A stretch of 64,000 bases of DNA from Escherichia coli (lineage in GTDB: Bacteria; Pseudomonadota; Gammaproteobacteria; Enterobacterales; Enterobacteriaceae): NCBI GenBank assembly GCA_902500205.1, contig GCA_902500205.1_4868.1. One strand, written 5' to 3'. Below the pieces are notes generated by a model that was not told the DNA's origin, made no database searches, and worked only from the letters and a program-made list of their open reading frames with translations. Positions 7,118 through 39,810 of the stretch are shown one piece after another (positions within the stretch are counted from its first letter, which is position 1; each line of letters opens with the position of its first letter). The translations under genes were made by a program, and so were the position numbers.

Positions 7118-7122
7118 GTGTA

Positions 7123-7160: not shown

Positions 7161-7162
7161 TA

Positions 7163-7190
7163 TTTCAGATAGATGTTATCTCAGTGAACC
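7163..7190 (+). promoter_or_regulatory. conserved intergenic motif, copy C (TTTCAGATAGATGTTATCTCAGTGAACC)
   Basis: One of five related ~30-nt motifs, all on the plus strand just upstream of plus-strand genes; contains AGATA...TATCT dyad. Confidence 0.35.
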
Positions 7191-7244
7191 TCTGAAATTT
7201 ACGTTTCAATCAGAGCTTATGTCATGTATTAAGGAGCAATTAAA

Positions 7245-7905: not shown

Positions 7906-7932
7906 GCTATTTTAAATCCTAAGGAGCATTAA

Positions 7933-8451: not shown

Positions 8452-8461
8452 GGGGGACAGG

Positions 8462-9165: not shown

Positions 9166-9188
9166 TCGGCGGATAAGGGTGATTGTGA

Positions 9189-9614
9189 ATGGTAACCATA
9201 GACGTAGCTATCTCTATCGAGCTTCAACGCATCGGTGTAGGTACACTAAAACTTCGTTATCGTGATTTACCGCATTACAACAAGATGTTTGATGTTGGGG
9301 TGATAAAGTTTTATAACCGGTACGGGCCAAGAGAACTATGTCTATGGTTTGTCGAGTTAGCGATAACTTATGGCGAGTTTTATCATCCTAATGTACCGCA
9401 TGTCGAACATGTGTCAAGAGGGCACCTGGAAACTTCCAGAGAGTTCTATCAGCGATTGTATGGCGCGATGGAGGAGTCCGCACCCATCGACTACGACGTA
9501 CCACCTGAACTGTTATTAATCGACCATGAAGGAGAAGCCGGTGTCTATTTCATTACAGGGACTGACTATTCACGAGATTCAGAAATATTTACTCGAGGGC
9601 GGGAAACTGACTGA
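9189..9614 (+). CDS. hypothetical protein
   Basis: 141-aa ORF. Confidence 0.5.
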   Translation: MVTIDVAISIELQRIGVGTLKLRYRDLPHYNKMFDVGVIKFYNRYGPRELCLWFVELAITYGEFYHPNVPHVEHVSRGHLETSREFYQRLYGAMEESAPIDYDVPPELLLIDHEGEAGVYFITGTDYSRDSEIFTRGRETD

Positions 9615-9846
9615 CGACTATCAAACCGCAGATATGTTGCTACAGTCATTTGTACCGTTACGTGCTGAGTATTACGAAATCGCGTTCCTGGGCGATGAAT
9701 ATTGTGTCCGCACGCAAGGGCGTGAATACGAAGCAGTTCGCGTACCACGAACACTCGGCGGGGTGATGATACTTATCGCTAATATCGAAGCACTCAATGC
9801 GAAATGTGCGTTATACATCGCACAAGGAGGTCGCAATGGATTTTAA
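9541..9846 (+). CDS. hypothetical protein
   Basis: GTG 9541 shortly after AAGGAGAA; a longer in-frame start (9526) would overlap the upstream gene more. Confidence 0.35.
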   Translation: MSISLQGLTIHEIQKYLLEGGKLTDDYQTADMLLQSFVPLRAEYYEIAFLGDEYCVRTQGREYEAVRVPRTLGGVMILIANIEALNAKCALYIAQGGRNGF

Positions 9847-9994
9847 GTGGGAACCGTTAACGTTAGCAGAAATTCGTAACAGAATCGATAGAGCTATTGC
9901 AAGGAGAAAACATGTTCGGCCTGTTTCAGGAGAAAAAACAGTTGCGTCGCCAATTAGAAATACTGGAATTGGAACTCAGCCTATCAAAGACTGA
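9836..9994 (+). CDS. possible small protein (52 aa)
   Basis: ATG 9836 five nt after AAGGAGG, but overlaps the next, better-supported gene in another frame. Confidence 0.25.
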   Translation: MDFKWEPLTLAEIRNRIDRAIARRKHVRPVSGEKTVASPIRNTGIGTQPIKD

Positions 9995-10313
9995 GTTGGA
10001 AATTTCGAAAGAAGCGTGGAAAAGAAATCTTGATGAATCTTTCGAAGAACGCCGTAAGCTTACGCGATTACTTTCTGAGGAACAGTCTAAGAACCGGAAA
10101 CTCGAAGATGAGCTACGGGATGCCCGACGAGATGCGGATCTGCGTGACAAGATGTTAGGATGGAACCTGGGTGCCCTAATCTATTTCATAGAGCAACGTT
10201 GGGAACCAAAAACACTCCTTGAGTTGCTCTATGAAAAACTCTCCTGTGTAGGTAAACGTTCTGCGGCCATCGAGTATTTCCGTAGTCACGGTTTCGAGGT
10301 AAAAGATGAGTAA
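9912..10313 (+). CDS. coiled-coil protein
   Basis: ATG 9912 five nt after AAGGAGAAAAC; strongly charged heptad sequence (LELELSLSKTELEISKEAWKRNLDESFEERRKL). Confidence 0.5.
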   Translation: MFGLFQEKKQLRRQLEILELELSLSKTELEISKEAWKRNLDESFEERRKLTRLLSEEQSKNRKLEDELRDARRDADLRDKMLGWNLGALIYFIEQRWEPKTLLELLYEKLSCVGKRSAAIEYFRSHGFEVKDE

Positions 10314-10391
10314 ATTAGAGGTTGGCAGGCTGTTCGTTAATCCTTAAAAAACAACAGTTTCAAATTAGTTACGACCATAAGGAGTATTAAA

Positions 10392-11195
10392 ATGTTAAAG
10401 CCACGCAAACAGAAAAGATTACAGTTTGTCAAAATAGTACATCCACAGTCCCATCGTGTTACAGGTGGACGTCTCTACGTGGGTAAACACCGTAGTCGTC
10501 TTATCACCTGGTCGGCAATGGCCAACGTAGCCACCCAACTCCAGGCAATGGTTGAAGACCGTTGCCAGTTAAAAGGGGATTTCTTTCAAGAGAAGAAACC
10601 CTATCGTGATATCTTCCGTACACTAAAGGCGTGCTGGGTACTCAGCTGGGTGCCTGGCCGCGAACAACTTTATTTTCTGCGTAAGTTCCCACGCCCTATG
10701 CCGAAGGAAAACATTAACGTTTTCTTAGACAAACTAAAACGCTTTAATGACATCGGCATAAACGCTAATAAAGAGCAAGTTTCTGCTACAGTAGCAGCCC
10801 GAAAACACTTACGCGATTATGTGGCCGATCGAGATGTTGAGTTCGCTTATATGACGCCGACTGTACCGCTGCTAAACGGTGATGCATTGAAAGCGAAGAT
10901 GGAAGAGATCGCGTTGAAGTTTCCTAACATCAGACACATCGCACCAGACGCGGTACTACAGCTGAACACTGAAGGCTGCACGCGTTTACCGACAGTCTCT
11001 GACACGGTGTTAGTATCAACACCTGATGTTCCTGATGGAAAGTCGTTCCTTGAAATGATAAAGAAACGTACAGAGGGTGGATATCAACCGATCTTTCTGG
11101 ATTCCCTTTCACAACATCCTGAAGTAGAACAAGAATTTAACATGAACACTAACAGCCCTTACGACTCCCTATACAAGGACGATAATGATGCTTAA
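10392..11195 (+). CDS. hypothetical protein
   Basis: ATG preceded by TAAGGAGTATTAAA; 267 aa. Confidence 0.6.
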   Translation: MLKPRKQKRLQFVKIVHPQSHRVTGGRLYVGKHRSRLITWSAMANVATQLQAMVEDRCQLKGDFFQEKKPYRDIFRTLKACWVLSWVPGREQLYFLRKFPRPMPKENINVFLDKLKRFNDIGINANKEQVSATVAARKHLRDYVADRDVEFAYMTPTVPLLNGDALKAKMEEIALKFPNIRHIAPDAVLQLNTEGCTRLPTVSDTVLVSTPDVPDGKSFLEMIKKRTEGGYQPIFLDSLSQHPEVEQEFNMNTNSPYDSLYKDDNDA

Positions 11196-13117: not shown

Positions 13118-13915
13118 ATGTCTTTTACTTCAAAACAGAATCTGCTAAAACTCATCAACGAAGAGAATAAGATAAGCCCACCGCTTACCTTTGACGATGT
13201 TGATATCGGACTGCCGGAGGTTGTGTCAGTAGACGGTCGTGATTCGGAGGTAGTCCTTACCTCGAAGATGCGCGGTGATGAAGGTACGCAAGTGATTGTG
13301 GACTACCATCGTCGTCCATTAGAGGACTACCTTAAAGGCGATGTTGCCTTTGGAGACGAGGACGTGCAAACCACGCACGACTTACTCGCGGCGATTAACG
13401 AGCGTTTTAATCTGTCTATCTTACCTGAGGATATCGAAGATAACCCCATTGATGGACAGACGCACACAGTCGTTGCTGTTGAAACTTCCCACGAGTGGCG
13501 AAGTCAAGCGGTCATCGAGCTGAAACCTGCTACACCTCTGGCAGAAGTAATAACCAATACAGAGTTGAGCGGTCTTCTGTACCCGGATCACCAGGACATC
13601 CAGTTGGGTCAGGCGTATATCTATTCGCGCGACATCGATTGTAGCCACATCTCTCGTTTCCTGAGCCTCTTAGCGGTCGGTATCGAAGTAGATGACACGG
13701 CGTTAGCAATCGAACTCAACAAATGTGTTCCTGAGATTTGGGTGGCTGAAGATACCCCATCCCCGTATAACTTGCGTGGTGCTACTGTCGTATTCGACGG
13801 CGTACCTGCAGACTTACCGGGAGCAAATACGGCGTTCGCGAAAGTCGTGTCAGTGCAACTGACCGATAAATGTACGAACTTCCAGGGCACCCTCAACTTA
13901 CACTTTAACAACTAG
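13118..13915 (+). CDS. family-A paralog 1 (265 aa)
   Basis: Shares the N-terminal family-A pattern (..L..IN..N....P.T.......G.P......GRD...V...) and the C-terminal LHFNN-type ending with its neighbours. Confidence 0.65.
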   Translation: MSFTSKQNLLKLINEENKISPPLTFDDVDIGLPEVVSVDGRDSEVVLTSKMRGDEGTQVIVDYHRRPLEDYLKGDVAFGDEDVQTTHDLLAAINERFNLSILPEDIEDNPIDGQTHTVVAVETSHEWRSQAVIELKPATPLAEVITNTELSGLLYPDHQDIQLGQAYIYSRDIDCSHISRFLSLLAVGIEVDDTALAIELNKCVPEIWVAEDTPSPYNLRGATVVFDGVPADLPGANTAFAKVVSVQLTDKCTNFQGTLNLHFNN

Positions 13916-13925
13916 GAGGGTATAG

Positions 13926-14768
13926 GTGTCTATTTACGATAAGCCCTCGAAAGAGATGTTGTTAGATGCTATTAACCGACAGAACGGATTAACGGCCAAT
14001 CCACTCACATGGGAGCAGGTTGCAACTGGCTTCCCTGAGTCTGTCCAAACGCCTGGCGCTGACCGGAATACGCGTGTGCTCTTATACGGGTTGAACGGCA
14101 AGGGCTACAAAGGCAACGTTACGCTCGAATACGACCGTATCGAAATGGAAATTCTGTTCAGGAACGTAATACCGGTAGTCGTTGCCGACCCGGTAAATAA
14201 ACTCTCTGAGTTGTTGCCGTTTCTGAATGCGAAATACGGCTTGTCTTTAGTTGCCGACGATATCGTTGACCAGTCAGTAAAAGATTTGGGAGAAAGCTGG
14301 TTAATCGATGTGACTATTAAGCCCGGTTGCTTGGCCTGGCAAGGTGGTTTCCGTTTACGCTTTGCGAAGTTCTTCCCGAACTTGGCGGATGTGGTGACGG
14401 ATGTTGACCTCAGCGCAATTATCGCGCCGTTCGTGGTTGCTAGTAAACCACAGGCCGAGTATGTGGCGTATGGTTACGATTGGACTGAACTGCAAAAACA
14501 GTTCACCACCGATTGGGTTTACAACCGTGCAATCACTGCAGCGGATGTTGAGTTGTTGAATGAAGTGGTGCCATTAAAGTTTGCATATGTGACGGGGGCG
14601 AATGCGCAACCTGAACAAATTGCACTCCAAGGTGCACGATTTATGGGGATAACTTCAGTCACACCGAACGATAGTTACAACCCCGATTATCAGCGTGTGG
14701 CGATTATCAAGCTAGCTGCGGACAGCAACTACGCCGGTAATCTCATCCTTCATTATCTCCCGATATAA
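13926..14768 (+). CDS. family-A paralog 2 (280 aa)
   Basis: GTG start after AGGAGG; N-terminus MSIYDKPSKEMLLDAINRQN...ADRNTRVLLYG...YKGNVTLEYDRIEMEILF fits the family pattern. Confidence 0.65.
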   Translation: MSIYDKPSKEMLLDAINRQNGLTANPLTWEQVATGFPESVQTPGADRNTRVLLYGLNGKGYKGNVTLEYDRIEMEILFRNVIPVVVADPVNKLSELLPFLNAKYGLSLVADDIVDQSVKDLGESWLIDVTIKPGCLAWQGGFRLRFAKFFPNLADVVTDVDLSAIIAPFVVASKPQAEYVAYGYDWTELQKQFTTDWVYNRAITAADVELLNEVVPLKFAYVTGANAQPEQIALQGARFMGITSVTPNDSYNPDYQRVAIIKLAADSNYAGNLILHYLPI

Positions 14769-14778
14769 GGATTTTGAC

Positions 14779-15624
14779 ATGCCACTTTTAGCCACAGCTG
14801 TAAAGATTATTATCGCGGAGGTTAACGTCGAAAACAATCTCGATTTAAAAGTCGAGGATGTTGTTTTTGGTGTCCCTGCGATTCCAACGTCTGACGAAGA
14901 CTTGGCAAAAGCTAACGGTCACAACGCGATGGTGCGCATTCAGGCATTGGCCACGGCTAATGCTATCGGTGCCACTACCGTCTATTACGATCGTGTTGAC
15001 TTCGCAGACATGTTTACCGATCCGGACGGGATTCAACCTTTACGTGTTCCTGCGCGTCTCGATGCTGTTTACCAGATGCATGACGTGGTCGGGTTAATTA
15101 ACCAGTATTACGGTCTCAGCCTTAAACCTGCAGATGTGGTGAATACCGAAATCGACAGGAAGACATGGCGTGTGGATCTGATTGCCACGCCCACTTCCTT
15201 AGGTTGGATAGGGCAACAACAGGTACAGCTGTTACCAGGCGATGCGTTGCTTCCTGCAAACTTCGAACCGTTAACAGTGATGCCTTACGAGTATCCGTAT
15301 TTCAACATCAAGGTCGGTCAAGGTGCAGTTTATTCGTATCCCTGGCGCTTTGATAATTTCGCGGAGGAATTTCAACGACTAGGTGCTGCGATAACCACAG
15401 AACGTCTGGCACAGATTCTCAAAACGGTCACCGGTGATAACTGGACAACATACCGTAACCCTATCGACTTTAACCTTCGTGAAGCCGTCGTCGTCTATAA
15501 CGGGCGTAACAAAGCGGAATTACCAACCAACCCAGCAGTCGACAACGTGCTGATTGTGGAGCTGTCGTTGTACTGTCTGAATTTTGGCGGGCGTTTGTAT
15601 TTGCATTACAACGACCCTGATTAA
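14779..15624 (+). CDS. family-A paralog 3 (281 aa)
   Basis: RBS AAGGA; conserved ..YYDRVDFADMF.. segment and C-terminal ..LYLHYND. Confidence 0.65.
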   Translation: MPLLATAVKIIIAEVNVENNLDLKVEDVVFGVPAIPTSDEDLAKANGHNAMVRIQALATANAIGATTVYYDRVDFADMFTDPDGIQPLRVPARLDAVYQMHDVVGLINQYYGLSLKPADVVNTEIDRKTWRVDLIATPTSLGWIGQQQVQLLPGDALLPANFEPLTVMPYEYPYFNIKVGQGAVYSYPWRFDNFAEEFQRLGAAITTERLAQILKTVTGDNWTTYRNPIDFNLREAVVVYNGRNKAELPTNPAVDNVLIVELSLYCLNFGGRLYLHYNDPD

Positions 15625-15645
15625 TCCTGAGTAAAGGAAGTAAGA

Positions 15646-16557
15646 ATGAAACCTTTAAACAAAACGTCCGATAAGCTGGTTCTGGATTTTATTAATGAGA
15701 AAAACCCAGACGCAGAACTGGAACTTTCTAAAATAACGCTCGGCACACCGACCCCTATTAGCGATGAAGGTGCTGATCGCAATACCAGCATGACCCTGAC
15801 TGCGAAAAAGAACTCCGGGTACATCGGTACTCAGGACGTGACTTATAATCGCCTGGAAGGCGGTGCGCTGTTCCGTAATGTAACAGCATACCTCGACGTT
15901 AAACTGCCGAAAACCACCACAGACCTGCTGACGACCCTGAACACCCAATACGGATTGAAGCTGACCGAAGACGATATCGTTCCGGCGGCTATTCCGGAAA
16001 ATACCAACCCGCCGCTGACTAACCCGAACGATCCGGACCCAGCACCGGTTGACCATGTCATTACCTTCAAAGAAGACTGCTACGCTTATCTGGGCAGCAT
16101 CCCGGTTAAAATCGGTGCTAAGCCTCAGGTTGGTGAACGTCTGAGTCTGGTGGTAACACAAACCAAGCTCGACGGCCTGGTTTACCCAGATGGTCCAAGC
16201 GAAGCGAAGGGTCAGGGCTACATCTACTCTTACGGTGTAGACTGCACAGCAATCGCAGCATTCCTGAAAGTACAGGCGAAAGGTGTTATCGCTGGCGACT
16301 CTGCATTCCCGGTTGAGCTGAATAAAGTTGTGCCGGAACTGTGGGTTGCATCTGATGAGCCTGCGGATTATAACCTGAAAGGCGCTAACGTGTTGTATGT
16401 TGGTTCTACTGCTGACGATGGCACTGCTTCAGGCGACGAACCTAAGAAACCGGTTGAAGGTGCAAACACTGCTTACAACCAGGTTCTGCTGCTGCAGCTG
16501 GATGACACTCTGTGCACCAACTTCCAGGGCATCATGTACCTGCACTTTAATGCCTAA
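15646..16557 (+). CDS. family-A paralog 4 (303 aa)
   Basis: RBS AAGGAAG; N-terminus ..KLVLDFINEKNPDA...ADRNTSMTL... and C-terminal CTNFQGIMYLHFNA almost identical to paralog 1 ending. Confidence 0.7.
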   Translation: MKPLNKTSDKLVLDFINEKNPDAELELSKITLGTPTPISDEGADRNTSMTLTAKKNSGYIGTQDVTYNRLEGGALFRNVTAYLDVKLPKTTTDLLTTLNTQYGLKLTEDDIVPAAIPENTNPPLTNPNDPDPAPVDHVITFKEDCYAYLGSIPVKIGAKPQVGERLSLVVTQTKLDGLVYPDGPSEAKGQGYIYSYGVDCTAIAAFLKVQAKGVIAGDSAFPVELNKVVPELWVASDEPADYNLKGANVLYVGSTADDGTASGDEPKKPVEGANTAYNQVLLLQLDDTLCTNFQGIMYLHFNA

Positions 16558-16568
16558 TTAGGCCTCGC

Positions 16569-16610
16569 TGGGAGGAGGAAATCCTCCTCCTGGCTACTCC
16601 TTTCTTTTTT
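16569..16610 (+). terminator. intrinsic terminator
   Basis: GGGAGGAGGA-AAT-CCTCCTCC hairpin followed by a T-run. Confidence 0.6.
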
Positions 16611-16626
16611 GGCCGAGGAGGCTATT

Positions 16627-17466
16627 ATGGCTTTATATAGTCTGTCTCAGCGACAATATCTGTACGATGCGATTAATGCCGAAAACCCGGATGCTGTTCT
16701 ACCGATGGGTTTAGACAATGCTATCATCGGTACGCCGAAAGCAATCACACCGACAGCAAGCGGTGCCAACACCGAGATTATCATTCGTGGTCGTCAAGGT
16801 CGTGGCTATATCGGTCCTCAGACGTTCCGTTATAAGCGCTTGTCGCTGAACGACTTATTTAAGAACATGACACCTCAGGTAACTGCACCGAATGCCTACG
16901 GTTGGTTGAACGTGGAGTCGAAACGTACTGCGTTTGCGCAGAACCTGAACGGTCGTTATGGATTAAACCTGGTTGCAGACGATATCCCAGAACAATACGT
17001 TTATCTGAACGTAAACAACACGATGCGTATTAACGCTAGCTGTATCCAATACACTGGCAGCATCACCTTTATGTCTATCCGGGGTAAGAATAGCCTCGAA
17101 GACCTCGTGGTAAACGACATCTTGTTGGCTTTGAACCACCCTGCAGCAGCAAGCACTGGTAAGAAATACATGGGCTTCTTGACGTACGGGGAAGACTTTA
17201 CCGATGAAGTGCAGGTTATGGCCTCGTTTAAGAACGGGCGAATGGATGTAGGAAGTAACTTTGATTTGGGTTACACGTCCAATCTGATGGCCACATTGGT
17301 CGCACGTGGGGTACCGTCGTTTGATCCGACGAACTGCACAATTACCCGCTACAAAACGAGTGAGTTGGCGACCGCCAATAAAGCGTACGATAACGTATTG
17401 CTGATTACCGGCATTCAGAACGACCCGAAAGTAATCGGCGAGTGTATGTTGCACTACAACAACTAG
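16627..17466 (+). CDS. family-A paralog 5 (279 aa)
   Basis: ATG 16627 after GAGGAGG; C-terminal ..MLHYNN. Confidence 0.65.
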   Translation: MALYSLSQRQYLYDAINAENPDAVLPMGLDNAIIGTPKAITPTASGANTEIIIRGRQGRGYIGPQTFRYKRLSLNDLFKNMTPQVTAPNAYGWLNVESKRTAFAQNLNGRYGLNLVADDIPEQYVYLNVNNTMRINASCIQYTGSITFMSIRGKNSLEDLVVNDILLALNHPAAASTGKKYMGFLTYGEDFTDEVQVMASFKNGRMDVGSNFDLGYTSNLMATLVARGVPSFDPTNCTITRYKTSELATANKAYDNVLLITGIQNDPKVIGECMLHYNN

Positions 17467-17476
17467 GAATTAGCGA

Positions 17477-18364
17477 ATGGCTATTTATCAACCTTCTAAA
17501 GACGTCCTGTTGGCAGCAGTGAACGCACAGAACTCGCTTGCTGTTAAGATGACTGACATCATCTGGTCCACGCCAAAGGACATCCGTGGTACGGAGAAGG
17601 AAACGCTGACTAACCGTAACACGCAAATTAAAATTACGGCAGATGGGGTAACGGGCTCTACCTGGTCGGGTAAGAAAAATGTCTTCTACAACCGCATGAA
17701 AGTCGAAGACTTGTTAGTGCTGATCGGTGACACGTTGGCGATCGGCCCATCCAACGAAACCTTGTATGCGGCCATTCCTGGACTGAACCAACGTTACGGT
17801 TTTGTTCTGGAAGAAGCTGACCTGCAGGACGCAGATATCGAGTGGAACGGTGATAAGACCGAAGGAACTGTGCGCGTTGTTGCACATCCAGAGTCTATCG
17901 GTTGGGTTGGACAGGCGACATTTAAAGTCGTGAAAGGTGATGAGTCGTTAGTCTCTGCAGTCACCACTAACGTCCTGACCGGTCTGAAATACCCGAACGG
18001 TCAGATGGGTTCCGAAACCGTTACTGCGGTCATTGCAGAGGTTTATTCCTACCCGTACAACTTCACTAAGTACCGAGATGCTCTGCTGGCATACAAGCCG
18101 GGTATTCTGTCTGGACAGCCGTTAACGGATATGGTTAACCTGCTGAAAGATATTACGGGTACTGCATGGGTAGCGACCACTTCCGCTTCCTACGGTTTGG
18201 CGGGCGCGGAGGTTATCAGCGTTGGTCTGAATGACCCTGTTGCAATGCCGACAAACGCGAAGTACAAGTATGCGCTGGTGTTGAAACTGCCTGTTACCTG
18301 TACCACCATCGTCGGAACGTTGTATCTCCAGTTCAACGATCTGGACGATCCAAGCGAGGTATAA
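17477..18364 (+). CDS. family-A paralog 6 (295 aa)
   Basis: N-terminus MAIYQPSKDVLLAAVNAQN...NRNTQIKIT...; C-terminal ..LYLQFNDLDD. Confidence 0.65.
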   Translation: MAIYQPSKDVLLAAVNAQNSLAVKMTDIIWSTPKDIRGTEKETLTNRNTQIKITADGVTGSTWSGKKNVFYNRMKVEDLLVLIGDTLAIGPSNETLYAAIPGLNQRYGFVLEEADLQDADIEWNGDKTEGTVRVVAHPESIGWVGQATFKVVKGDESLVSAVTTNVLTGLKYPNGQMGSETVTAVIAEVYSYPYNFTKYRDALLAYKPGILSGQPLTDMVNLLKDITGTAWVATTSASYGLAGAEVISVGLNDPVAMPTNAKYKYALVLKLPVTCTTIVGTLYLQFNDLDDPSEV

Positions 18365-18367
18365 TTG

Positions 18368-19195
18368 ATGATCAACTATGCTAAGCCGTCAAACGAGTTG
18401 GTCTTTGACCTCATTAACCGGGATAACCCAAACCTACCTATTAAAGCGTCGCCGGCAAACTGCTACGTGGAGAAAGTGACACAGGTTCCCGTTAATGCAG
18501 CTTCCAACAACCGCAATACGTCGGCACGCTTGCGCGGTATTCAGGGTTCCGGATTTCGAGACGCAATCACCGTTTATTACGACCGTGTGAACTTAGCGCG
18601 GTTATTGCCGTGGGGTCCTTCTGTCCAGGCGCAGTTCGTCACGTTTGACGCTCCCAACCTCCACTCAGCCTTTTCGGTGCTCTTGGATACTTACGGAGTA
18701 AACTTCTCTGCAATCGATATCTATAACCTCCCACTGGCGGGCCCCAATACCCCAAATTACACCAATACACAGAACATCGTAGCGCTATCGACATCTCCGG
18801 CTTATATCGGTTCTGCGACGTTGCGTTATAACCGTGGTTTACCGGTACTAGACACTTCGGTGAAATCGGATGTCTTGAATGCGATTCAAGAGCCTATCTC
18901 GCCGTCTCTCGGTAAGAAGTGTATTGATTTGTTGACGTACGGTATTGACTTTACCGCGTATAAAAACCTACTGACAGTAGATGCTTCTGGCCTACCGCAG
19001 TGGGCTGGTTTGCGTAAGGTGTTGGATGACCTGGGTATTCCGAACTACGCGGGGCCACTGAACAGTAACACCGTTCAGGATGTGCCGACTTCCACCGCTC
19101 AGTTCGCTAACAAATCGTACGACCGCGTGGTTATCCAAACGGGCATCGATGAGGAAGGCGTGAAAGGCGTGGCGTACTACCACTATAACAGCTAA
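18368..19195 (+). CDS. family-A paralog 7 (275 aa)
   Basis: MINYAKPSNELVFDLINRDNPNL...NNRNTSARL...VYYDRVNLARLL; C-terminal ..YYHYNS. Confidence 0.65.
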   Translation: MINYAKPSNELVFDLINRDNPNLPIKASPANCYVEKVTQVPVNAASNNRNTSARLRGIQGSGFRDAITVYYDRVNLARLLPWGPSVQAQFVTFDAPNLHSAFSVLLDTYGVNFSAIDIYNLPLAGPNTPNYTNTQNIVALSTSPAYIGSATLRYNRGLPVLDTSVKSDVLNAIQEPISPSLGKKCIDLLTYGIDFTAYKNLLTVDASGLPQWAGLRKVLDDLGIPNYAGPLNSNTVQDVPTSTAQFANKSYDRVVIQTGIDEEGVKGVAYYHYNS

Positions 19196-33077: not shown

Positions 33078-33118
33078 GTACCTACCTCCCTTCGGGGAGG
33101 TAGGGCCTTTATTTTCTT
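33078..33118. terminator. bidirectional intrinsic terminator (UUCG tetraloop)
   Basis: CCTACCTCCC-TTCG-GGGAGGTAGG with A-run upstream and T-run downstream; ends both the plus gene and the minus-strand operon. Confidence 0.75.
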
Positions 33119-33121
33119 TGC

Positions 33122-33793
33122 TTACATGCCGAGTGATTCGGACAATGTTTTTAAACCGGTGTAATCGCGCTTTTCAGCTAACTCACGGATTTGGCGTTTG
33201 TTATCTGCCATTGCTGAGTGCAACACCTGGTCGCGTGCAACAATAGCGCCCAACAACGCTTTACATTGGTCTACTGTAAACGGACTGTGCTTAGTATTCA
33301 GCGTATCGAGCCAGTATTCTGGTGCGGTATCTGCCTGAATGTATTGACCGAGGATGGTACGCGACGATTCATCGGCTTGAAAGTGACTACCTTCAAACTC
33401 GATATAACCATGACGCACATCTTCGTAGCGATGGTCAAGTTCCAACAGCATCTTCTGCACGTCTTCGTAAATGTAACGTGCGGTAGATTTCAGATTCCCG
33501 CGAATTTCGTCGAGGTCAATCTCCAGCACATTAGCAATAAACTCTTTCGTGCGTTTCAATGTGAAGTTAGCTTCAATCTCCGACATCTCATACAGCTTCA
33601 TGCGTGCCAGGGCTTCTTTATCAGACATCCCTTCGATGAGATGGTAATGGAGTAATGCACAAAATCCGGTACGACCCTGATCCTGCGCACCGATTCGTTC
33701 CATGAAATTGCCGTGACGATCAATCGGCAAATCACGCTGGAAATAACGGGCGCGGATCTCTTCGTTCGTTAAGCTTTTGTCAGTAACAGACAT
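33122..33793 (-). CDS. hypothetical protein, last gene of the rSAM/fibre operon
   Basis: ATG 5 nt after GAGGAGG; 223 aa; no assignable motif. Confidence 0.55.
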   Translation of the reverse strand: MSVTDKSLTNEEIRARYFQRDLPIDRHGNFMERIGAQDQGRTGFCALLHYHLIEGMSDKEALARMKLYEMSEIEANFTLKRTKEFIANVLEIDLDEIRGNLKSTARYIYEDVQKMLLELDHRYEDVRHGYIEFEGSHFQADESSRTILGQYIQADTAPEYWLDTLNTKHSPFTVDQCKALLGAIVARDQVLHSAMADNKRQIRELAEKRDYTGLKTLSESLGM

Positions 33794-34335
33794 TCGTCCT
33801 CCTCAATCAGGCCAAGTTCTAACAACAAACCGAAGTCCAGCATCTGGAAGTCCTGATCGAGGTTACCGGCCCACAACAGAGAAATGTTGTGTTGCTCTTC
33901 TTCTTCCAACTGCGGGAGCAGGTGTTCTTCGAAGATTTGACGTTCTGTGTAATAAGCGTCAACCGGGTTATTGGAGCGTAAGTTACGAATACGCATCCGC
34001 GGGAATGACAAGCCCAATGCCACTAAACTTTCAGGACTGGCTTCATCAATAGAGTGACGTAGCAGTTCGATTTTGTGGCGTGGGTATGCAAGCAGTCGCT
34101 TCTCAAAGCCAGGGTTGCGCTTTTCGATTTCCGCGACAGACTCGTGTCCTTTCTCAACGCAGTAGACCGGGATCATCACATTCAGCCCGTATTTAATCAA
34201 CAGGCTTTGGATTTCATCAGTGAAGTCTTCCCCTGCCACAATTGCGTGCACATTGTACAGCTTGCTTTTGCGCAGGAAGCGATCGACCAAGTGCAGTTTA
34301 CGCTTCGTAAAATTGTGAATCAGTATTGACTTCAT
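33769..34335 (-). CDS. hypothetical protein (188 aa) in rSAM cluster
   Basis: Start set at internal ATG (MKSILIHNF..) to limit overlap with upstream rSAM gene; acidic C-terminus. Confidence 0.45.
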   Translation of the reverse strand: MKSILIHNFTKRKLHLVDRFLRKSKLYNVHAIVAGEDFTDEIQSLLIKYGLNVMIPVYCVEKGHESVAEIEKRNPGFEKRLLAYPRHKIELLRHSIDEASPESLVALGLSFPRMRIRNLRSNNPVDAYYTERQIFEEHLLPQLEEEEQHNISLLWAGNLDQDFQMLDFGLLLELGLIEEDECLLLTKA

Positions 34336-35626
34336 TCTGGGCTCCGTTTTGTAATTTTTCTGCTTCAGCACGTTGGCGTACACAACGTGAACAATAGCAC
34401 ATGGATTTATCATGCAAATCTGATGCGCGGGTCGTACCAGTTTTCTGATACCAATATTCCGCCGCCATCAGCTTCGCAGTAGTCCAACCACACTGACGAC
34501 GTTCGGCGTGATACGCTTTACGGTCTTCCAGTGTACCTTCACCGTTTTCGTACGATGCTGCTGCGCAGCTACCGCAACTGTGTTTCATCGGACACCCTAA
34601 ACAGGTTTCTGGGTAGTTGGTGTACTGCGTTTGAATCTCTTCTAACAGCTTACCACCGTCCAGGCTCACAAACTCACGACCGACCAGTTCTGCTACAGCA
34701 GAACGGGAAGTTACCGTGGACATGAAACGGTTACAACCGTAAATCTTGCGATCAAAGCCGAGACAGGTCATGTGCGTCAACGTACCGCAGTACGGTTTCA
34801 GGCGTTCTGGGTCGAGACGAACAGAGTCGTCATGTAAGAGTTTGTCACGCCAATCCGGGTCCCAAGTTGCCATAAAGTTCAGGCCATCCGGGATGATGTG
34901 TGTAATCGTGTTACGCGGGTTGGTGTGCAGACCCTTCTCAATCCAGTAGTCCATCACGTCCATCATCTGGTTCGCGATATCCAACGCCATATGGCGCGGC
35001 AGGATATCTTCGTACGTTACGTTACCAGAGATGGTACCACCGCCGGACATGTCAATTAACGATTTCATGCTGGCGGCATAGTGCGGCAATGTATCGATCG
35101 TAAACGTCGCCTTTACGCCCAGCTCAGCGATGCCAACGCTCTTCAGGTAATTGTAACCGCGTACCGCAGCTTCGTACGACCCTTCACGCGTCGTGGTAAA
35201 GATACGATATTTGTCATGGACTTCAGGTAAACCATCGATGGAGACCCCAATAGACAGTTTGTCTTTCCAGCGCTCGATAATTTCTTTGTTCAGCGGTCGG
35301 TCCAGAAGTGTACCGTTCGTGGAGATACTGAACATATACGGGCGATTGTGTTCTGCGCATAACTTCTCTGCGGTTTCAAAGGCCGCCAAAAGAAGTTTAG
35401 GCTGCATGAACGGCTCACCACCGATGATATCGATGATGACTTCAACGTTCGGGATATCTTTATCGCGCTCGAAACAAGCGTGGATAAAATCAATCACGTC
35501 TGCTACTTTGTTGTTACGCGGATATTTACGCTCGTAGCAGTATTCGCAGTCCAGGTTACATGACAAGTTAGTCACAACCTGATACGTGCGTGGTGTGTAC
35601 TGGATTTGCTGTTCGCTATTACTCAT
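34298..35626 (-). CDS. radical SAM enzyme with SPASM-like C-terminal Cys cluster (putative peptide-modifying maturase)
   Basis: CNLDCEYC (CX3CX2C) near N-terminus, GGEP motif, and C-terminal CLGCPMKHSCGSC (Cx2Cx5Cx2C) plus further Cys, as in SPASM/twitch auxiliary cluster domains. Confidence 0.75.
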   Translation of the reverse strand: MSNSEQQIQYTPRTYQVVTNLSCNLDCEYCYERKYPRNNKVADVIDFIHACFERDKDIPNVEVIIDIIGGEPFMQPKLLLAAFETAEKLCAEHNRPYMFSISTNGTLLDRPLNKEIIERWKDKLSIGVSIDGLPEVHDKYRIFTTTREGSYEAAVRGYNYLKSVGIAELGVKATFTIDTLPHYAASMKSLIDMSGGGTISGNVTYEDILPRHMALDIANQMMDVMDYWIEKGLHTNPRNTITHIIPDGLNFMATWDPDWRDKLLHDDSVRLDPERLKPYCGTLTHMTCLGFDRKIYGCNRFMSTVTSRSAVAELVGREFVSLDGGKLLEEIQTQYTNYPETCLGCPMKHSCGSCAAASYENGEGTLEDRKAYHAERRQCGWTTAKLMAAEYWYQKTGTTRASDLHDKSMCYCSRCVRQRAEAEKLQNGAQNEVNTDSQFYEA

Positions 35627-36533
35627 TGTTCGCCGCCCGTTTACGCTTAGCAGAAATTACACGGTTGATGTAGTTATACGCATCAACGCCGATAGAACGC
35701 GCCAGGCGATTACAGCCGACTTCCAATATCTCTGGCGCGTTCTGAATTTGCTCCTGCGTACCGTCGGCGTTAAGCCACAGCACTTCACTGCACGTGTTGC
35801 ACTCGGTATCGAACATTTTACTGATCGCAAGCCCACATTCAGAATCGTTCTGCATGTTAAGGCGTTCGATATTGTCGAGTATTTTCCAATACCCGTACAT
35901 GAAGTTCATGACGTGGTCTGGCGATAACGGTTTCGGCATCATCGCATCAAACAGCAACGACATACCACCTGGACGGTAATGATAGATTGCTCGGTGCAGC
36001 TCGATGAAATCTTCGTACCAGCGTTTATCGCCTAACTGGTCACGCGTCATCACACCCCAGGTGTAATAGTTGTCCAGCTCGTACAGCACTTCCAGCGCTT
36101 CGTGATTACCACCGTTTACAAAGTTCATAAACGGACGTTCCGACTTCTTGTAGCCGTCAATGGACACAAAGATAAGGTCGAACTGTTTCAGCAACGGCAG
36201 ATGTGATTTACGCATCTTTAAACCGTTGGTGTACATGTGATGACGGAGGTTCGGATGAGACTCCTTCAACTCATTCACGAAGTCTTCAATCTTGCGCTGC
36301 GCTAACAGCGGCTCACCGCCCGTCCAATGAATCTCACCGATATCCGGATTCTTCTCTAAAATCGAGAGAATCTCTTCACGTTGAAACTCACGAGAAGTAT
36401 CTTCTCTATCCATGTAATAAGCCCCTCCACAGAAGCTACAGTCTAAGTTACACTTAGAAGTTGCGACAACCGACAGAATTGACGGTTTGTCGTACAGTTC
36501 AGACGAGATCCTGGATTCTACTTGATCTGTCAT
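35619..36533 (-). CDS. radical SAM enzyme (second, 304 aa)
   Basis: CNLDCSFC (CX3CX2C) and WTGGEPLL motifs; ATG 36533 (MTDQ..) after GGAG; C-terminal region has additional Cys (ECNTCSE). Confidence 0.7.
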   Translation of the reverse strand: MTDQVESRISSELYDKPSILSVVATSKCNLDCSFCGGAYYMDREDTSREFQREEILSILEKNPDIGEIHWTGGEPLLAQRKIEDFVNELKESHPNLRHHMYTNGLKMRKSHLPLLKQFDLIFVSIDGYKKSERPFMNFVNGGNHEALEVLYELDNYYTWGVMTRDQLGDKRWYEDFIELHRAIYHYRPGGMSLLFDAMMPKPLSPDHVMNFMYGYWKILDNIERLNMQNDSECGLAISKMFDTECNTCSEVLWLNADGTQEQIQNAPEILEVGCNRLARSIGVDAYNYINRVISAKRKRAANNE

Positions 36534-36555
36534 TGCAGGTTGCTCCAGTATATTT

Positions 36556-37443
36556 TTAAATATAATCAATGGCGAATAAAGGATCTTCGTCTACATTAGC
36601 GCCAGGCACCAGTAACATCGGGTCGTGATAGGCAGCTAAAATTTTGTTCAGGTCGGCATGTCTTTCGTTCAAGCGTTTCAAATCGGCCAACGTAACCGAA
36701 CGACTACGAATCTCAGAAACAGCTTCTGCTTCTTCTTTCGTTAAATCCACCTTCGTTAAGAGGAAGCTTACCAGCTTACTCAAATCCGCTTCTGTCGCCG
36801 GGTAATCCCCATATCGGGTTTGAACCAGGTGTTGCATCCACGGCTTACGAATACGTTTGGTGATTTCGAAATCGTCAGTCAGCGCATACCAGACAGAACG
36901 CTTTTTATCCCACACGAACTTATAGCTATACGCCATCATGTCCGCTAAACGGGTGATGCCGAGTTCTTTATATCCCTCGATATCGATGTACGGTTCGGTG
37001 TCGAAATACGTTTCCGTATCGGCAGGTACCAGTACAAAGTAGTAAGGGAATGAGCCCAGATAGTCCGGACTCCACCAACGGCGCGCCATCGGTTTTGCTT
37101 CGAGTTCGTCAAACGGTGTAAACATCAGTTCTAAATCGACACTGTTGTTCAAAATCCCTTCACTGAAGAAATACTTACCGTCGACTAACACGCCACGAGA
37201 GTTACCATCGCCGTTAAAGATAACGATGGCCTCTGCAACCATATCACGGATCTTAAACGTATTTTCTACGGTGTAGTTCTTCTTGTCGGTCAAGAAGCGA
37301 CCACGAACCTTTGGCCACTCACCAGGAATCTGTGCAATCAGTCTGACTTTGTCAGCGAGGTGTGCACGCACCGAATCTGGGGAAGATAGATGCAGCGGGT
37401 GGTTGAATGTGGTTTTATACGCAAGATGCAAATCGTTTTTCAT
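36556..37443 (-). CDS. hypothetical protein (295 aa) between precursors and rSAM genes
   Basis: ATG after GGAG; no recognisable motif; position suggests accessory or partner role. Confidence 0.5.
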   Translation of the reverse strand: MKNDLHLAYKTTFNHPLHLSSPDSVRAHLADKVRLIAQIPGEWPKVRGRFLTDKKNYTVENTFKIRDMVAEAIVIFNGDGNSRGVLVDGKYFFSEGILNNSVDLELMFTPFDELEAKPMARRWWSPDYLGSFPYYFVLVPADTETYFDTEPYIDIEGYKELGITRLADMMAYSYKFVWDKKRSVWYALTDDFEITKRIRKPWMQHLVQTRYGDYPATEADLSKLVSFLLTKVDLTKEEAEAVSEIRSRSVTLADLKRLNERHADLNKILAAYHDPMLLVPGANVDEDPLFAIDYI

Positions 37444-37465: not shown

Positions 37466-37672
37466 TTATCGATTCCCCGCTCCACGGCTACAGCTTCCGC
37501 TGCAGGACCAGCTACACCCACCATTACAGTTATAGTGAGAAAGCGGTAAGCCAGCCAGGTTATTTGTGGTCGACACGGTGCCCTGGTTAGCGATATAGTT
37601 GTTTGCCTGTGCGGTTGTAATGTAACCTTCTGCCGTAACGAGACGGTTTCGAATAGTCTTGAGACTGATCAC
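37466..37672 (-). CDS. leader + Cys-rich core small protein 3 (68 aa)
   Basis: GTG start 5 nt after GGAGG; N-terminus MISLKTIRNRL.. parallels the two larger paralogs; core HYNCNGGCSWSCSGSCS. Confidence 0.55.
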   Translation of the reverse strand: MISLKTIRNRLVTAEGYITTAQANNYIANQGTVSTTNNLAGLPLSHYNCNGGCSWSCSGSCSRGAGNR

Positions 37673-37687
37673 ATAAGCCTCCGTCGG

Positions 37688-38092
37688 TTAGGAGTTAGGA
37701 CCTGAACAACCACCAGAGCACGCACCTGAGCAGTTTGCGGAGCAGGATTTACCACAACCCCCAGAACAGCTGCCTGTGCACGTGCCGCTACAACCACCAG
37801 AGCACGAAGAGCTACAGCCCGTGCAGCTGCTGCTACAGCCTGATACACAGTTTGCCGAACAAGTCGACCCACAACCGCCCGTAGCAGACCCAGTACATCC
37901 GCCAGAACAACTCGAGCAACTAAAAGAGCATGTGCCACCACAGTCATAGTGCGAACGGCCTTGACCTGCGAACAAGTCGGCGTTATTCGTAGCTTTATTG
38001 CGAATGTAGTTTTGCACATTCGTGGTGTTCTTTAAAGCGTTTGCATCGATCGCGTTTAATCGGTTATTCAGTTCTTTTAATCCAATTGCCAT
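37688..38092 (-). CDS. leader + Cys/Gly/Ser-rich core protein 2 (134 aa)
   Basis: N-terminal ~48 aa conserved with neighbours (MAIGLKELNNRLNAIDAN..); C-terminal ~85 aa is C-(S/T)-G-x-C repeats with about 20 Cys. Confidence 0.65.
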   Translation of the reverse strand: MAIGLKELNNRLNAIDANALKNTTNVQNYIRNKATNNADLFAGQGRSHYDCGGTCSFSCSSCSGGCTGSATGGCGSTCSANCVSGCSSSCTGCSSSCSGGCSGTCTGSCSGGCGKSCSANCSGACSGGCSGPNS

Positions 38093-38102
38093 TTAATCCC
38101 CC

Positions 38103-38495
38103 TTAGCGACCTGAACAGCCACCGGAGCAGGCTCCGGAACAACTGGAAGAACATGAGCCACCGCAACCACCTGTGCAGTTACCGGTACAGCTACTACTGC
38201 AACCACCAGAACAACCAGAGCAACCAGAACAGTTACCGCCACACGTCGAAGAACAGCTACCGATACAAGAAGCAGAACAGCTTCCTGAACAGCTCGAACA
38301 GCCATGCGAGCAACCGTTAGAGCACGTCCAAGAACATGTCCCGCCGCAATCTAGCTGTGTTTTCGTCCAACCCCCAAATCGGTCTGCCGCGTTATGGGCT
38401 TTAGAGGCCACTTGCGCGTCGATACGGGGGCCTGTCGCCATGTTAGCTTCGACTATCTGGACGCGGTTTCTGACGTCTTTAATAGATATCGCCAT
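38103..38495 (-). CDS. leader + Cys/Gly/Ser-rich core protein 1 (130 aa)
   Basis: ATG after AAGGAAG; MAISIKDVRNRVQIVEAN.. leader-like region, then DCGGTCSWTCSNGCSHGCSSCSGSC.. core. Confidence 0.65.
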   Translation of the reverse strand: MAISIKDVRNRVQIVEANMATGPRIDAQVASKAHNAADRFGGWTKTQLDCGGTCSWTCSNGCSHGCSSCSGSCSASCIGSCSSTCGGNCSGCSGCSGGCSSSCTGNCTGGCGGSCSSSCSGACSGGCSGR

Positions 38496-38496
38496 T

Positions 38497-38541
38497 ACGC
38501 TTCCTTAAAAAGTAGAACGAGCGGACTATGTCCATAAACAT
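38497..38541 (-). terminator. hairpin with partial T-run between fibre gene and Cys-rich genes (attenuator or partial terminator)
   Basis: On the minus strand GAGCCGGACTATG-tttatgga-CATAGTCCGCTC followed by GTTCTACTTTTT, immediately upstream of the first Cys-rich gene RBS. Confidence 0.4.
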
Positions 38542-38560
38542 AGTCCGGCTCGTAAACAAG

Positions 38561-39763
38561 TTACTTAGTACCCGCTTCAGCTTGAACATCGTCGCGCGAG
38601 GTGAGGTTGTTGTTAACGTGAACAGCAGCCTGCACAACACCGCCATACTGTTTATGGAGGTAATTCGGGTGTGGGTTATCCGCAGCCGCATGGTTCGCCA
38701 GATTCTGGTTTGCCTGCGAAATTGCGTTGGTGTTGTTTACAACCTGAGTTTTAAGACTGTTGATTTGTCCTTGCAGGTTATCAATTTGCTGTTGGAAGTC
38801 TTTGCCCTGATTCTCAAGATCCGTGACACGCTGATTTGTTTCATTCAGCGCAGACTGAAGATCGTTAACCTTCTTCTGTAATTGCAACACCAGAGAATTA
38901 AGGTTAGCTAATGCTAACGACATTTTCTGGTAATTTTGAGCAACCACGTTAAGCTGGTCGTTCCACGCGGCTAACGAAGCCACAATTGCATCGATGCGTT
39001 GCCCCAACGCTGTGTCTGCTGCTCTTAAGTCGCCGATATCTTTGATAGTGGCGTCAATGGCAGTCTGTACACTTTGAATCAGAGCACGAATCTCCGTCTC
39101 CGTCAGGCCATTAACCTGATGAATGTCGAGATTGTGTACGTTACCTTCGGCGTTGATGTGGGTATTTAAGGCGTCGAGGAAGTCGTTTTTCAGACCACCC
39201 AGAATACCTTTAATTTCTTCCAGCTGTACTGCAGAGCCGGAGTTAATCGCATCTTTAATCCCCGCGAGTACGGTAATGATATACTCAAAACCGTAGATAT
39301 CGCCAAGGTCTTTATACGTCGGTGCGGACGGGAACGTATCGGGTACGTTCCGAAGATCCTTGAAGTCCACCACGCGGTCTTCAATTTTCAACGACGCAAT
39401 CGCTTGTCGGATGCCTTCGACGTTCGCGGACTGAAAACCACCGACAACTTGCGCAGAGACTTCGATATCAGTAGGAATGGCCGTGTTAGTTACCACCACA
39501 CCCATGACCACTTCGCGGTTCTTGGTCATTTTCTGATATGCAGTATGTGCAAAAATCAGCTCGTAGTCTGTACCGCGTTTGTACGGGTAGACACCTGGTT
39601 TATTCGCAGCCGCCAAGCGGAAGGTATCCGCGTAGAAAGCTCCGTCAGGAAATGCAAAAGCCCGGTTAACTTTACCAGAACCTAACGTAATACGCCGCGT
39701 AACGGCGTTCGACGTTAATGTCCCGGTAAGGTCGAGCGGGTACTGATAAATGATTTCGGCCAT
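38561..39763 (-). CDS. tail-fibre-like coiled-coil protein (400 aa)
   Basis: ATG 39763 (MAEIIYQ..) 7 nt after AAAGGAG; N-terminal module shared with the three giant proteins (..AFYADTFRL....G.DYELIFAH); Gln/Asn/Leu heptad coiled coil in C-terminal third. Confidence 0.65.
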   Translation of the reverse strand: MAEIIYQYPLDLTGTLTSNAVTRRITLGSGKVNRAFAFPDGAFYADTFRLAAANKPGVYPYKRGTDYELIFAHTAYQKMTKNREVVMGVVVTNTAIPTDIEVSAQVVGGFQSANVEGIRQAIASLKIEDRVVDFKDLRNVPDTFPSAPTYKDLGDIYGFEYIITVLAGIKDAINSGSAVQLEEIKGILGGLKNDFLDALNTHINAEGNVHNLDIHQVNGLTETEIRALIQSVQTAIDATIKDIGDLRAADTALGQRIDAIVASLAAWNDQLNVVAQNYQKMSLALANLNSLVLQLQKKVNDLQSALNETNQRVTDLENQGKDFQQQIDNLQGQINSLKTQVVNNTNAISQANQNLANHAAADNPHPNYLHKQYGGVVQAAVHVNNNLTSRDDVQAEAGTK

Positions 39764-39810
39764 TGCCAAACTCCTTTGATTGGGGCTTCCTTGCCCCATA
39801 GCGCTAACTG

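Follow-up and report, generated by a model that had tools for sequence, protein, structure and literature searches.

The stretch of DNA analysed here (64,000 nucleotides from Escherichia coli assembly GCA_902500205.1, contig GCA_902500205.1_4868.1; hereafter the window) belongs to an SPN3US-like jumbo phage; it shares 98-99% identity with the Seoulvirus group of ~240-kb genomes, which includes Salmonella phage SPN3US, and 79-81% with more distant members. In this study, three small tandem genes on its minus strand, designated A, B and C, were analysed together with the neighbouring genes for two radical S-adenosylmethionine (rSAM) enzymes, which lie 0.9-3 kb downstream within one operon. The three genes are as follows.

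Gene A, 38103-38495, minus strand: 130 amino acids (aa), 21 Cys; N-terminal helix and linker at residues 1-49, then the junction C50-G-G-T-C-S-W-T-C.
Gene B, 37688-38092, minus strand: CXXX-repeat paralogue of 134 aa with 20 Cys; junction CGGTCSFSC.
Gene C, 37466-37672, minus strand: 68 aa with 4 Cys and a GTG start; junction CNGGCSWSC; C-terminus GAGNR.

These open reading frames (ORFs) lie exactly where a preliminary description of the DNA had placed three tandem minus-strand paralogues. Their N-terminal regions, taken alone, are related to one another by BLASTP (A-B 3e-9, A-C 3e-4, B-C 9e-3), and alignment of the three proteins bore out the proposed common junction, H-Y-D/N-C-x-G-x-C-S-W/F-x-C-S, up to which the N-termini correspond. 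The cores beyond it measure 81 (A), 84 (B) and 20 aa (C), with 21 and 20 Cys in the two larger ones, in close agreement with the lengths of about 80, 85 and 20 aa and the count of about 20 Cys given earlier. The Cys spacing is 4 in 17/20 intervals of A and 16/19 intervals of B, the remainder being mostly 3, and the cores of these two proteins consist of ~25% Cys together with small residues. The units follow the consensus C-[S/T]-G-[G/S/T], with Ser or Thr directly after Cys in 77% of the CxxxC units and 100% of the CxxC units. Apart from those of A and B, the window has no long Cys-periodic tract in any of its frames.

A, B and C are real, expressed-looking genes under purifying selection, as judged from a third-position bias in the Cys frame, from Cys kept across five genera, from strong Shine-Dalgarno sequences and from profile matches. 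Substitutions between A and its orthologue in pEa_SNUABM_29 are distributed 16/7/61 over the three codon positions, and the Shine-Dalgarno sequences read ahead of the ORFs are well spaced in every case (AAGGAAG for A, and AAGGGGGA and GGAGG for the other two). PHROG 6085, a family of unknown function, is matched by A (1e-41), B (3e-41) and C (3e-24). The orthologues compared come from six phages that cover five genera (SPN3US, pEa_SNUABM_29, Asesino, Huxley, Wellington and CR5; seven genomes with the window), and they form three orthologous groups, each found in every genome.

The preliminary description had called the cores hypervariable, and this proved wrong, since the paralogues differ mutually, yet each is strongly constrained across its orthologues. 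None of the 21 Cys columns of A varies among the seven genomes, and 20 of the 23 Cys columns of B are kept. Between the window and CR5, identity amounts to 41% in the N-terminal region and 69% in the core (58% in the core without Cys), and the core was conserved above the N-terminal part in all orthologue comparisons. Gene C, whose orthologues have 2-4 Cys, is present in each of the five genera and also in a metagenomic phage (L010). A core diversified by a diversity-generating retroelement, or otherwise hypervariable, is ruled out by the conserved orthologues. Other candidates were rejected as well: no prohead-protease A-x-E site was seen by eye ahead of the core in A, B or C, and formylglycine formation of the anaerobic-sulfatase type was set aside, there being no C/S-x-P/A-x-R motif. 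When A was modelled by AlphaFold2 as an unmodified monomer from an alignment of 8 sequences, the pLDDT was 44.6, with moderate confidence at the helix 5-20 only. The unmodified monomeric core is thus predicted to have no autonomous fold, which would be compatible with a structure that needs modification or oligomerisation.

Gene callers miss A and B. In the SPN3US record (JN641803), gp166 is the sole annotation between gp167 and gp165, and A, B and C are unannotated. The spurious ORFs in other frames that had been noted earlier are present, and one of them is this annotated gp166 (window 37669-38019, minus strand; L001 8684-9019), a wrong-frame ORF across gene B. The ORFs annotated here in Erwinia phage relatives are a mix of correct, wrong-frame and opposite-strand ones. 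In a collection of ~15 billion predicted proteins, the exact sequences of A and B are absent, the exact sequence of C occurs on 230 contigs as 'hypothetical protein', and the identical large rSAM occurs on 598 contigs. A database search with A gave 16 matches only, several of which were frame-shifted chimeras.

A profile was built from A, B, C together with three relatives taken from the database, and an exhaustive search with it through 1.84 billion cluster representatives gave 246 matches at E<=1e-3, ranging in size from 60 to 1800 aa. In 114 of the 145 tract-bearing matches the CXXX tract ends at most 12 residues from the C-terminus. The N-terminal parts of the matches include collagen G-X-Y repeats, coiled coils, T4-like fibre N-termini and gp12-like 'ATxxEAxxG..KAVTP' repeats; examples of fibre proteins with a C-terminal tract are P0310 and P0189 (collagen repeats), P0215 (coiled coil) and P0227. 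In many cases the match runs from profile positions 2-12 to ~125 and so takes in all of the 'leader', which means that the N-terminal segment of A, B and C has its homologous counterpart inside long fibre proteins, ahead of the junction. The shared module of ~125 aa comprises a helix, a linker ending L-x-G-Q-x4-Y, a junction C-x2-3-C-S-W-x-C and ~20 units of the form C-[S/T]-G-x. Bona fide fibre proteins of T4-like phages, prophages and gut phages have this module as their C-terminal end. The consensus of the junction over ~45 diverse proteins (NAxxLxGQxxSYYRCxNGCSWTCSSxCTGGCGNGCTGxC[LM]AGCTGGCSSCTGxC) indicates that this region is a defined domain and not mere low complexity.

The linkage of this tract to rSAM genes was determined in loci drawn from viral contigs by the peptide pattern alone and then scanned with phmmer, about 11 of the 27 lying outside the jumbo clade. 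In all 27 CXXX loci an rSAM gene is found on the same strand at most ~1.5 kb downstream. Moreover, searches that started from the rSAM enzymes recovered a CXXX tract in 3/3 new contexts. It is therefore very probable that the radical-SAM/SPASM enzyme encoded nearby has A, B and C as its substrates. In the preliminary description, unmodified structural or metal-binding homologues with no link to rSAM enzymes would have counted against this idea; homologues do occur within structural (fibre) proteins, and the tight linkage to rSAM genes persists.

The minus-strand operon runs in the order gp170-168, gp167, A, B, C, gp165, small rSAM gp164, large rSAM gp163, two small genes and a terminator, and it begins with giant baseplate/fibre proteins of 1237, 1376 and 1742 aa (SPN3US gp170-168). 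The order fibre-A-B-C-gp165-rSAM2-rSAM1 is kept in Seoulvirus, Erskinevirus, Machinavirus, Wellingtonvirus and Derbicusvirus. The remaining features of the operon in the window are listed below.

38561-39799, minus strand: gp167-like fibre protein, 412 aa, with a long coiled coil and a C-terminal H-x4-NPHPNY motif; directly upstream of A.
38517-38553, minus strand: stable RNA hairpin between the stop of the fibre gene and the ribosome-binding site of A (-25.5 kcal/mol, z -3.1).
36556-37443, minus strand: accessory protein (gp165-like) of 295 aa that contains no Cys and is conserved alongside the two rSAMs.
35619-36569, minus strand: small radical-SAM enzyme (gp164-like), with CX3CX2C at 40/44/47 of the ORF and C-terminal Cys at 245/257/260/286.
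34298-35626, minus strand: large radical-SAM/SPASM enzyme (gp163-like), 442 aa, with CX3CX2C at 23/27/30.
33769-34413, minus strand: ORF of the gp162-like gene, real start probably near 34335; PHROG 7988/8169 matches for the gp162/gp161 pair.
33122-33793, minus strand: gp161-like gene, the last of the operon; DUF4376 match at 1.6e-8.
33081-33104, no single strand: bidirectional intrinsic-terminator-like hairpin with a 10-bp stem, 7 GC pairs and T-runs on both strands, which closes the operon.

The large rSAM carries a complete SPASM Cys set at residues 280, 288, 298, 342, 345, 351, 354 and 379. Its top family matches are TIGR04115, the maturases of CXXX-repeat targets (3e-36, 125.6 bits), and then the ranthipeptide maturase PapB (1e-32, 113.6 bits, residues 22-357), and the nearest solved structure by sequence is CteB (5wgg, 3e-10), the similarity including the SPASM CxxCx5Cx3C region. 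On these grounds of sequence it is presumed to be the cross-linking maturase of A, B and C. The small rSAM matches Pfam Radical_SAM at 1e-15, and its true start is probably the ATG at 36533. The corresponding gp164 of SPN3US (window 35619-36569, minus strand; L001 6620-7414) has been annotated from an internal Met, with the loss of the CX3CX2C motif. For the fold of the gp165-like protein no known relative was found, and Pfam likewise gave no match; Pfam also gave no family match for A, B and C.

The gp167-like protein has PHROG matches to virion structural and tail fibre proteins, and it is a 'viral fiber protein' in the annotation of Proteus phage 7. The hairpin that separates its gene from A is kept in position and not in sequence in four other genera (five with that of the window), being found at ~4555-4582 in L003, ~4549-4581 in L004, ~4556-4582 in L005 and ~4547-4578 in L006, and a U-run follows it in Asesino and Huxley. 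It is possibly a leaky terminator or attenuator that would set the expression ratio of the fibre to the maturation genes. At the end of the operon, the gp162-like and gp161-like genes keep synteny with the module in five genera, and their products do not occur in the virion proteome; these proteins (the latter with DUF4376) are possibly fibre assembly factors. Elsewhere in the window (13118-19195, plus strand) there is a tandem row of seven ORFs, each of 265-303 aa, which match one another as paralogues by phmmer at E 1e-7 to 1e-42 and presumably represent one SPN3US virion paralogue family.

Homologues of the large rSAM with 33-39% identity are located in tail modules of unrelated elements, a Deferribacter abyssi prophage (L007) and a T4-like phage (L008). 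In the prophage, a 302-aa fibre protein with HxHDxRY repeats lies downstream of a GpJ-like tail protein, its C-terminus reads '...ADQLGGQAGSYYRCSDCSWTCSSSC...' and then 28 Cys at period 3-4, and the genes after it encode a 250-aa protein, a 263-aa rSAM and a 385-aa rSAM. In the T4-like phage, a 568-aa fibre protein beside a gp13-like neck gene has the C-terminus '...TLGGQPPDFYTCGGSCSWSCLSTC...' and then 28 Cys at period 4, and two rSAMs follow. The gp165 protein is homologous to the 250-aa prophage protein (E 1e-9) and the small rSAM, over its full length, to the 263-aa rSAM (E 1e-14), so that four parts make up the conserved unit, namely the CXXX substrate, the accessory protein and two rSAMs, one small and one of the SPASM type. 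These components recur in a metagenomic phage with a large rSAM 47% identical to that of the window, in which the A-like and B-like proteins have 21 Cys each, the C-like protein has 60 aa, and the homologue of the large rSAM (rSAM1) lies upstream of A.

The enzymes of the CXXX loci belong to two lineages, the SPN3US type, with paired rSAMs and a gp165-like protein, which among isolated phages occurs only in the five genera named above, and a second lineage with one rSAM of ~430-480 aa and small accessory proteins. Two of three enzymes of the second lineage pass the TIGR04115 cut-off (L011 with 389 and L037 with 429 bits; L042 has 305). An example of the second lineage is found in a siphoprophage with the order tape measure, Dit, Tal, 1373-aa collagen fibre, 226-aa CXXX protein, rSAM, holin and endolysin. 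The TIGR04115 members above the cut-off include one in a siphoprophage between tail fibre and holin/endolysin and one in a 205-kb viral contig beside CXXX proteins.

Several variations of the module were also observed. An extra small rSAM gene lies between A and B, besides the usual pair, in two jumbo-phage contigs of IMG/VR (L017 7406-8326 and L018 7406-8326). The tract also reaches extreme forms: five consecutive CXXX ORFs with 53, 76, 104, 21 and 63 Cys occupy 4127-10579 of the viral contig L032, a 457-aa ORF with 90 Cys lies at 5888-7258 of another, L041, and some proteins of 1600-1800 aa (P0181, P0183, P0184 and P0187) carry C-terminal tracts of ~600 aa with 145-168 Cys. In a 177-kb human-gut phage contig (L014 9001-11272), the CXXX and rSAM genes contain in-frame TAG codons where the database protein has Gln, which points to a TAG-recoded phage genome, and the CXXX tract of this phage stands at the N-terminus of the protein, not at the C-terminus. 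Two short ORFs (71 and 157 aa; L008 2083-2798) lie between the fibre and accessory genes of the T4-like phage, the first of which carries CNMNCSFC, and by their sequence the two seem to be pieces of a third radical-SAM gene that has been split or has decayed.

The virion proteome of SPN3US contains gp160, gp167, gp168, gp169, gp170 and gp171, and gp161-166 are all absent from it (PMC5694885); gp167 was found in these virions at 44.8 kDa with an SC/M of 1.90 (PMC5694885 supplement). The presence of the fibre proteins in the particle and the absence of the rSAMs and gp165 is the pattern expected of maturation enzymes. The virion mass spectrometry searches ran on the JN641803 annotation, which omits A, B and C, and these proteins could therefore not be detected in the proteome, as they were missing from its search database. 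The tryptic peptides that would be diagnostic of A are VQIVEANMATGPR, IDAQVASK, AHNAADR and FGGWTK, and those of B would be LNAIDANALK, NTTNVQNYIR and ATNNADLFAGQGR.

Taken together, the reading that we favour, with a probability of roughly 0.6, is that A, B and C are uncleaved fibre-tip proteins, that is, free-standing versions of the module, which are cross-linked by SPASM rSAM chemistry and are not secreted peptides of the RiPP (ribosomally synthesised and post-translationally modified peptide) or microcin kind. By analogy with characterised enzymes, the cross-links would probably be thioethers. Late in infection, A, B and C would be made in the cytoplasm from the fibre operon and recognised through the junction or the N-terminal segment, and the gp163-like SPASM rSAM would modify them together with the small gp164-like rSAM and the gp165-like accessory protein. 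Each Cys thiol would be joined to a carbon of a neighbouring residue to give roughly one thioether per CXXX unit, a proposal made because PapB, CteB and QhpD all join Cys sulfur to the carbon of another residue by radical chemistry. One candidate acceptor, on the model of N-x-x-C systems, is the Ser or Thr that follows each Cys and stands three residues ahead of the next one. A floppy Gly/Ser/Cys tail may in this way be converted into a ladder of small rings, forming a rigid, protease-resistant and oxidation-inert rod at the distal end of the fibre. The modified proteins would be neither cleaved nor exported and would be built into the baseplate/fibre apparatus, with the gp167 fibre as their probable site, while the maturation enzymes would stay outside the virion. 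A, B and C may form one A:B:C heterotrimer, a speculative suggestion made because there are exactly three conserved paralogues here and one presumably homotrimeric fibre elsewhere. As a broader and more tentative proposal, to which we give somewhat less than even odds, many phage lineages may 'vulcanise' their distal fibre tips by means of rSAM/SPASM enzymes, with ~20-160 Cys cross-links, the domain being split in the SPN3US-like phages into an A:B:C heterotrimeric tip on gp167.

Several points weigh against these proposals. We infer both the modification of A, B and C and their presence in virions, and the heterotrimer is a speculation drawn solely from the three conserved paralogues. The cores of A and B have no Asp or Glu, the acceptors of PapB and QhpD; A, B and C score just under the TIGR04114 cut-off, and the large rSAM far under that of TIGR04115. 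An RRE (RiPP recognition element) or PqqD-like domain was not found in any component or accessory protein of any lineage. The terminator-like hairpin between the fibre gene and A suggests expression below the need of a stoichiometric fibre partner. Furthermore, these phages are grown aerobically, where rSAM activity may be limited.

Other explanations were weighed against the same data. The proteins could be classical RiPP precursors, in which the N-terminal leader guides the rSAMs and is then cut off to release the Cys-rich core as a bioactive peptide, either bacteriocin-like or host-manipulating. This would suit a leader-like N-terminus and a Cys-rich C-terminus adjoining SPASM rSAM genes, a G-G/A-G dipeptide (FGG, FAG, LAG) a few residues ahead of the core, and the fact that the nearest characterised enzymes make RiPPs. 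However, the core is more conserved than the 'leader', which is the reverse of the RiPP pattern, and the genes lie inside a structural fibre operon in at least 5 unrelated phage types. The cleavable leader of the preliminary description is also at odds with the alignment of this segment inside long fibre proteins that carry the same C-terminal tract, where it cannot serve as a cleavable N-terminal leader. No peptidase, PCAT (peptidase-containing ABC transporter) or exporter family was detected in the operon with Pfam, NCBIfam and PHROG, although a host or prohead protease might act instead. Release of such a peptide is accordingly regarded as unlikely. The possibility that the ORFs are artefacts, that is, non-coding by-products of low-complexity DNA, has a negligible probability: ORFs do occur in several frames of this DNA and gene callers disagree on the frame, but the third-position bias, the Cys kept in five genera, the strong Shine-Dalgarno sequences and the strong profile matches argue otherwise, and this DNA has weak tandem repeats only.

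Unmodified Cys-rich structural or metal-binding proteins, either metallothionein-like or stapled by disulfides, would leave the rSAMs to act on the large fibres or on a small molecule. The high content of Cys among small residues resembles that of metal-thiolate proteins, and this explanation gains both from the indirect grounds for modification and from the peptide scores under the TIGR04114 cut-off. It is nevertheless improbable in our view, as the adjacency of tract and rSAM gene holds in every locus across unrelated phages with different shafts, of which the tract is the sole common feature, as the searches from the rSAM enzymes led back to the tract in each new context, and as the nearest enzymes are cross-linkers of Cys in peptides and proteins. 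The CxxxC period is also atypical of the C-x-C and C-x-x-C chelation of metallothioneins. We attach a similarly low probability to A, B and C being non-virion assembly factors, that is, transient chaperones or scaffolds for gp167-170 that are later discarded. Genes for fibre chaperones typically sit directly downstream of the fibre gene, as A, B and C do, the terminator-like hairpin suggests sub-stoichiometric expression, and the neighbouring DUF4376 and gp162-like proteins are also non-virion. Yet many phages carry the tract within the fibre protein itself, as its covalently joined C-terminus, so that it belongs, at least initially, to the fibre. No similarity to known chaperone families was found (Pfam, NCBIfam, PHROG), and no Peptidase_S74-like domain adjoins the tract, although C-terminal autocleavage could still occur.

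If cross-linked fibre tips are indeed what these genes encode, a function would be provided for the two 'putative radical SAM superfamily proteins' of SPN3US-like phages, which have been unexplained for over a decade, and two or three missing genes would be added to the reference annotations. The TIGR04115 maturases would gain a biological context in phage tail-fibre tips, and, on the broader proposal, the 'CXXX-repeat RiPP' family would belong to phage structure and not to the making of natural products. Cross-linking, if real, would represent a new post-translational chemistry in virion assembly, with possible effects on the rigidity of fibres, on environmental stability and on the recognition of hosts. 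On the broader proposal it would create a new class of enzymatically cross-linked virion material, radical-SAM/SPASM enzymes having so far been tied to peptide natural products and cofactors, and these enzymes would be a source of many serial cross-links in one polypeptide.

With respect to known systems, the closest likeness is to the CXXX-repeat system (TIGR04114 'tSAM_targ_Cxxx', TIGR04117, TIGR04115 'rSAM_Cxxx_rpt' and PF27846), in which tandem Gly/Ser/Thr-rich CXXX repeats stand beside a SPASM rSAM, as they do here. TIGR04114 is the only family match of the peptides (A 19.6, B 17.1 and C 13.7 bits against a cut-off of 20), and PF27846 was silent on A, B and C in the local Pfam copy and has precomputed matches on the relatives P0118-P0128 and on the L008 fibre. 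The large rSAM has the CX3CX2C motif and the SPASM Cys that are expected of TIGR04115 and scores 125.6 bits against a cut-off of 350; its sequence places it in a sister group to this family, tying with PapB. The SPN3US-type module has two rSAMs and a gp165-like protein, whereas catalogued CXXX systems have one rSAM and proteins of 102 and 192 aa, and its substrates, unlike those catalogued, come as three conserved proteins that share a defined N-terminal part of helix and junction. To our knowledge, the CXXX-repeat/TIGR04115 family has received no biochemical characterisation. In the literature searched, no paper tied CXXX-repeat/rSAM systems to phage fibres or treated these SPN3US genes, and the link of this kind of system to phage tail-fibre tips appears to be new there.

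The preliminary description had likened the cores to SCIFF/ranthipeptide substrates. The likeness to the ranthipeptide type stood, by way of PapB and TIGR04115, and membership in SCIFF did not, since the large rSAM scores 53.9 bits against the SCIFF maturase model (cut-off 425) and the SCIFF peptide model does not match A, B or C. SCIFF/CteB (TIGR03974; 5WGG) makes Cys-to-Thr thioethers, for which the frequent Ser or Thr after Cys (77-100% of units) is a parallel here; SCIFF, however, has ~45 aa with six Cys, and CteB has an N-terminal RRE, whereas the CX3CX2C of the large rSAM is already at residue 23. PapB, of the PapA/PapB system (freyrasin, NF047865), belongs to the SPASM rSAMs, has no RRE at its N-terminus and is the second-best match of the large rSAM, but it joins Cys to Asp or Glu in C-X3-D motifs, residues which the A and B cores do not have, and the score of 113.6 bits is under its cut-off of 340. 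The small RiPP PapA is secreted, in contrast to A, B and C with their place in a virion operon. PapA is reported to have serial short Cys motifs, with one ring cross-linked per motif (PMC10739248).

Two different rSAMs, an accessory protein and a substrate of short-period repeats are also found together in HxsABCD and in thuricin CD (TrnC/TrnD). HxsB matches the large rSAM (4.8e-21) and HxsC the small one (6e-12), all far under the cut-offs; the Hxs repeat is H-x-S rather than C-x-x-x, and gp165 has no HxsD-like match. In thuricin CD, two rSAMs are reported to act jointly in thioether formation (PMC12093266). The microcin B17-type chemistry of the preliminary description shares a Gly/Ser/Cys-rich core with A and B and requires the McbBCD/YcaO cyclodehydratase/dehydrogenase, but no cyclodehydratase/YcaO-type family was found among the nine neighbouring proteins with Pfam and NCBIfam, and the strict period-4 Cys together with the rSAM linkage leads away from it. 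A precedent for a retained protein is QhpD, a SPASM rSAM that installs multiple intramolecular Cys thioethers in QhpC, the gamma subunit of quinohemoprotein amine dehydrogenase; its model (TIGR03906) matches the large rSAM at 3.8e-15, far under the cut-off, and it uses Asp/Glu acceptors for three cross-links in an enzyme subunit, whereas ~20 cross-links in a virion component are proposed here. The gp38 adhesin of T2/S16-type phages is a small protein encoded after the fibre gene, whose Gly-rich C-terminal domain is the distal tip; it has no sequence similarity to A, B or C (Pfam, PHROG) and neither Cys periodicity nor a need for rSAM enzymes. In conclusion, the system works like a RiPP maturation pathway and fails several defining features of a RiPP precursor, and it is a variant of the catalogued, uncharacterised CXXX-repeat/rSAM kind that scores below the TIGR04114, TIGR04115, PapB and SCIFF cut-offs.

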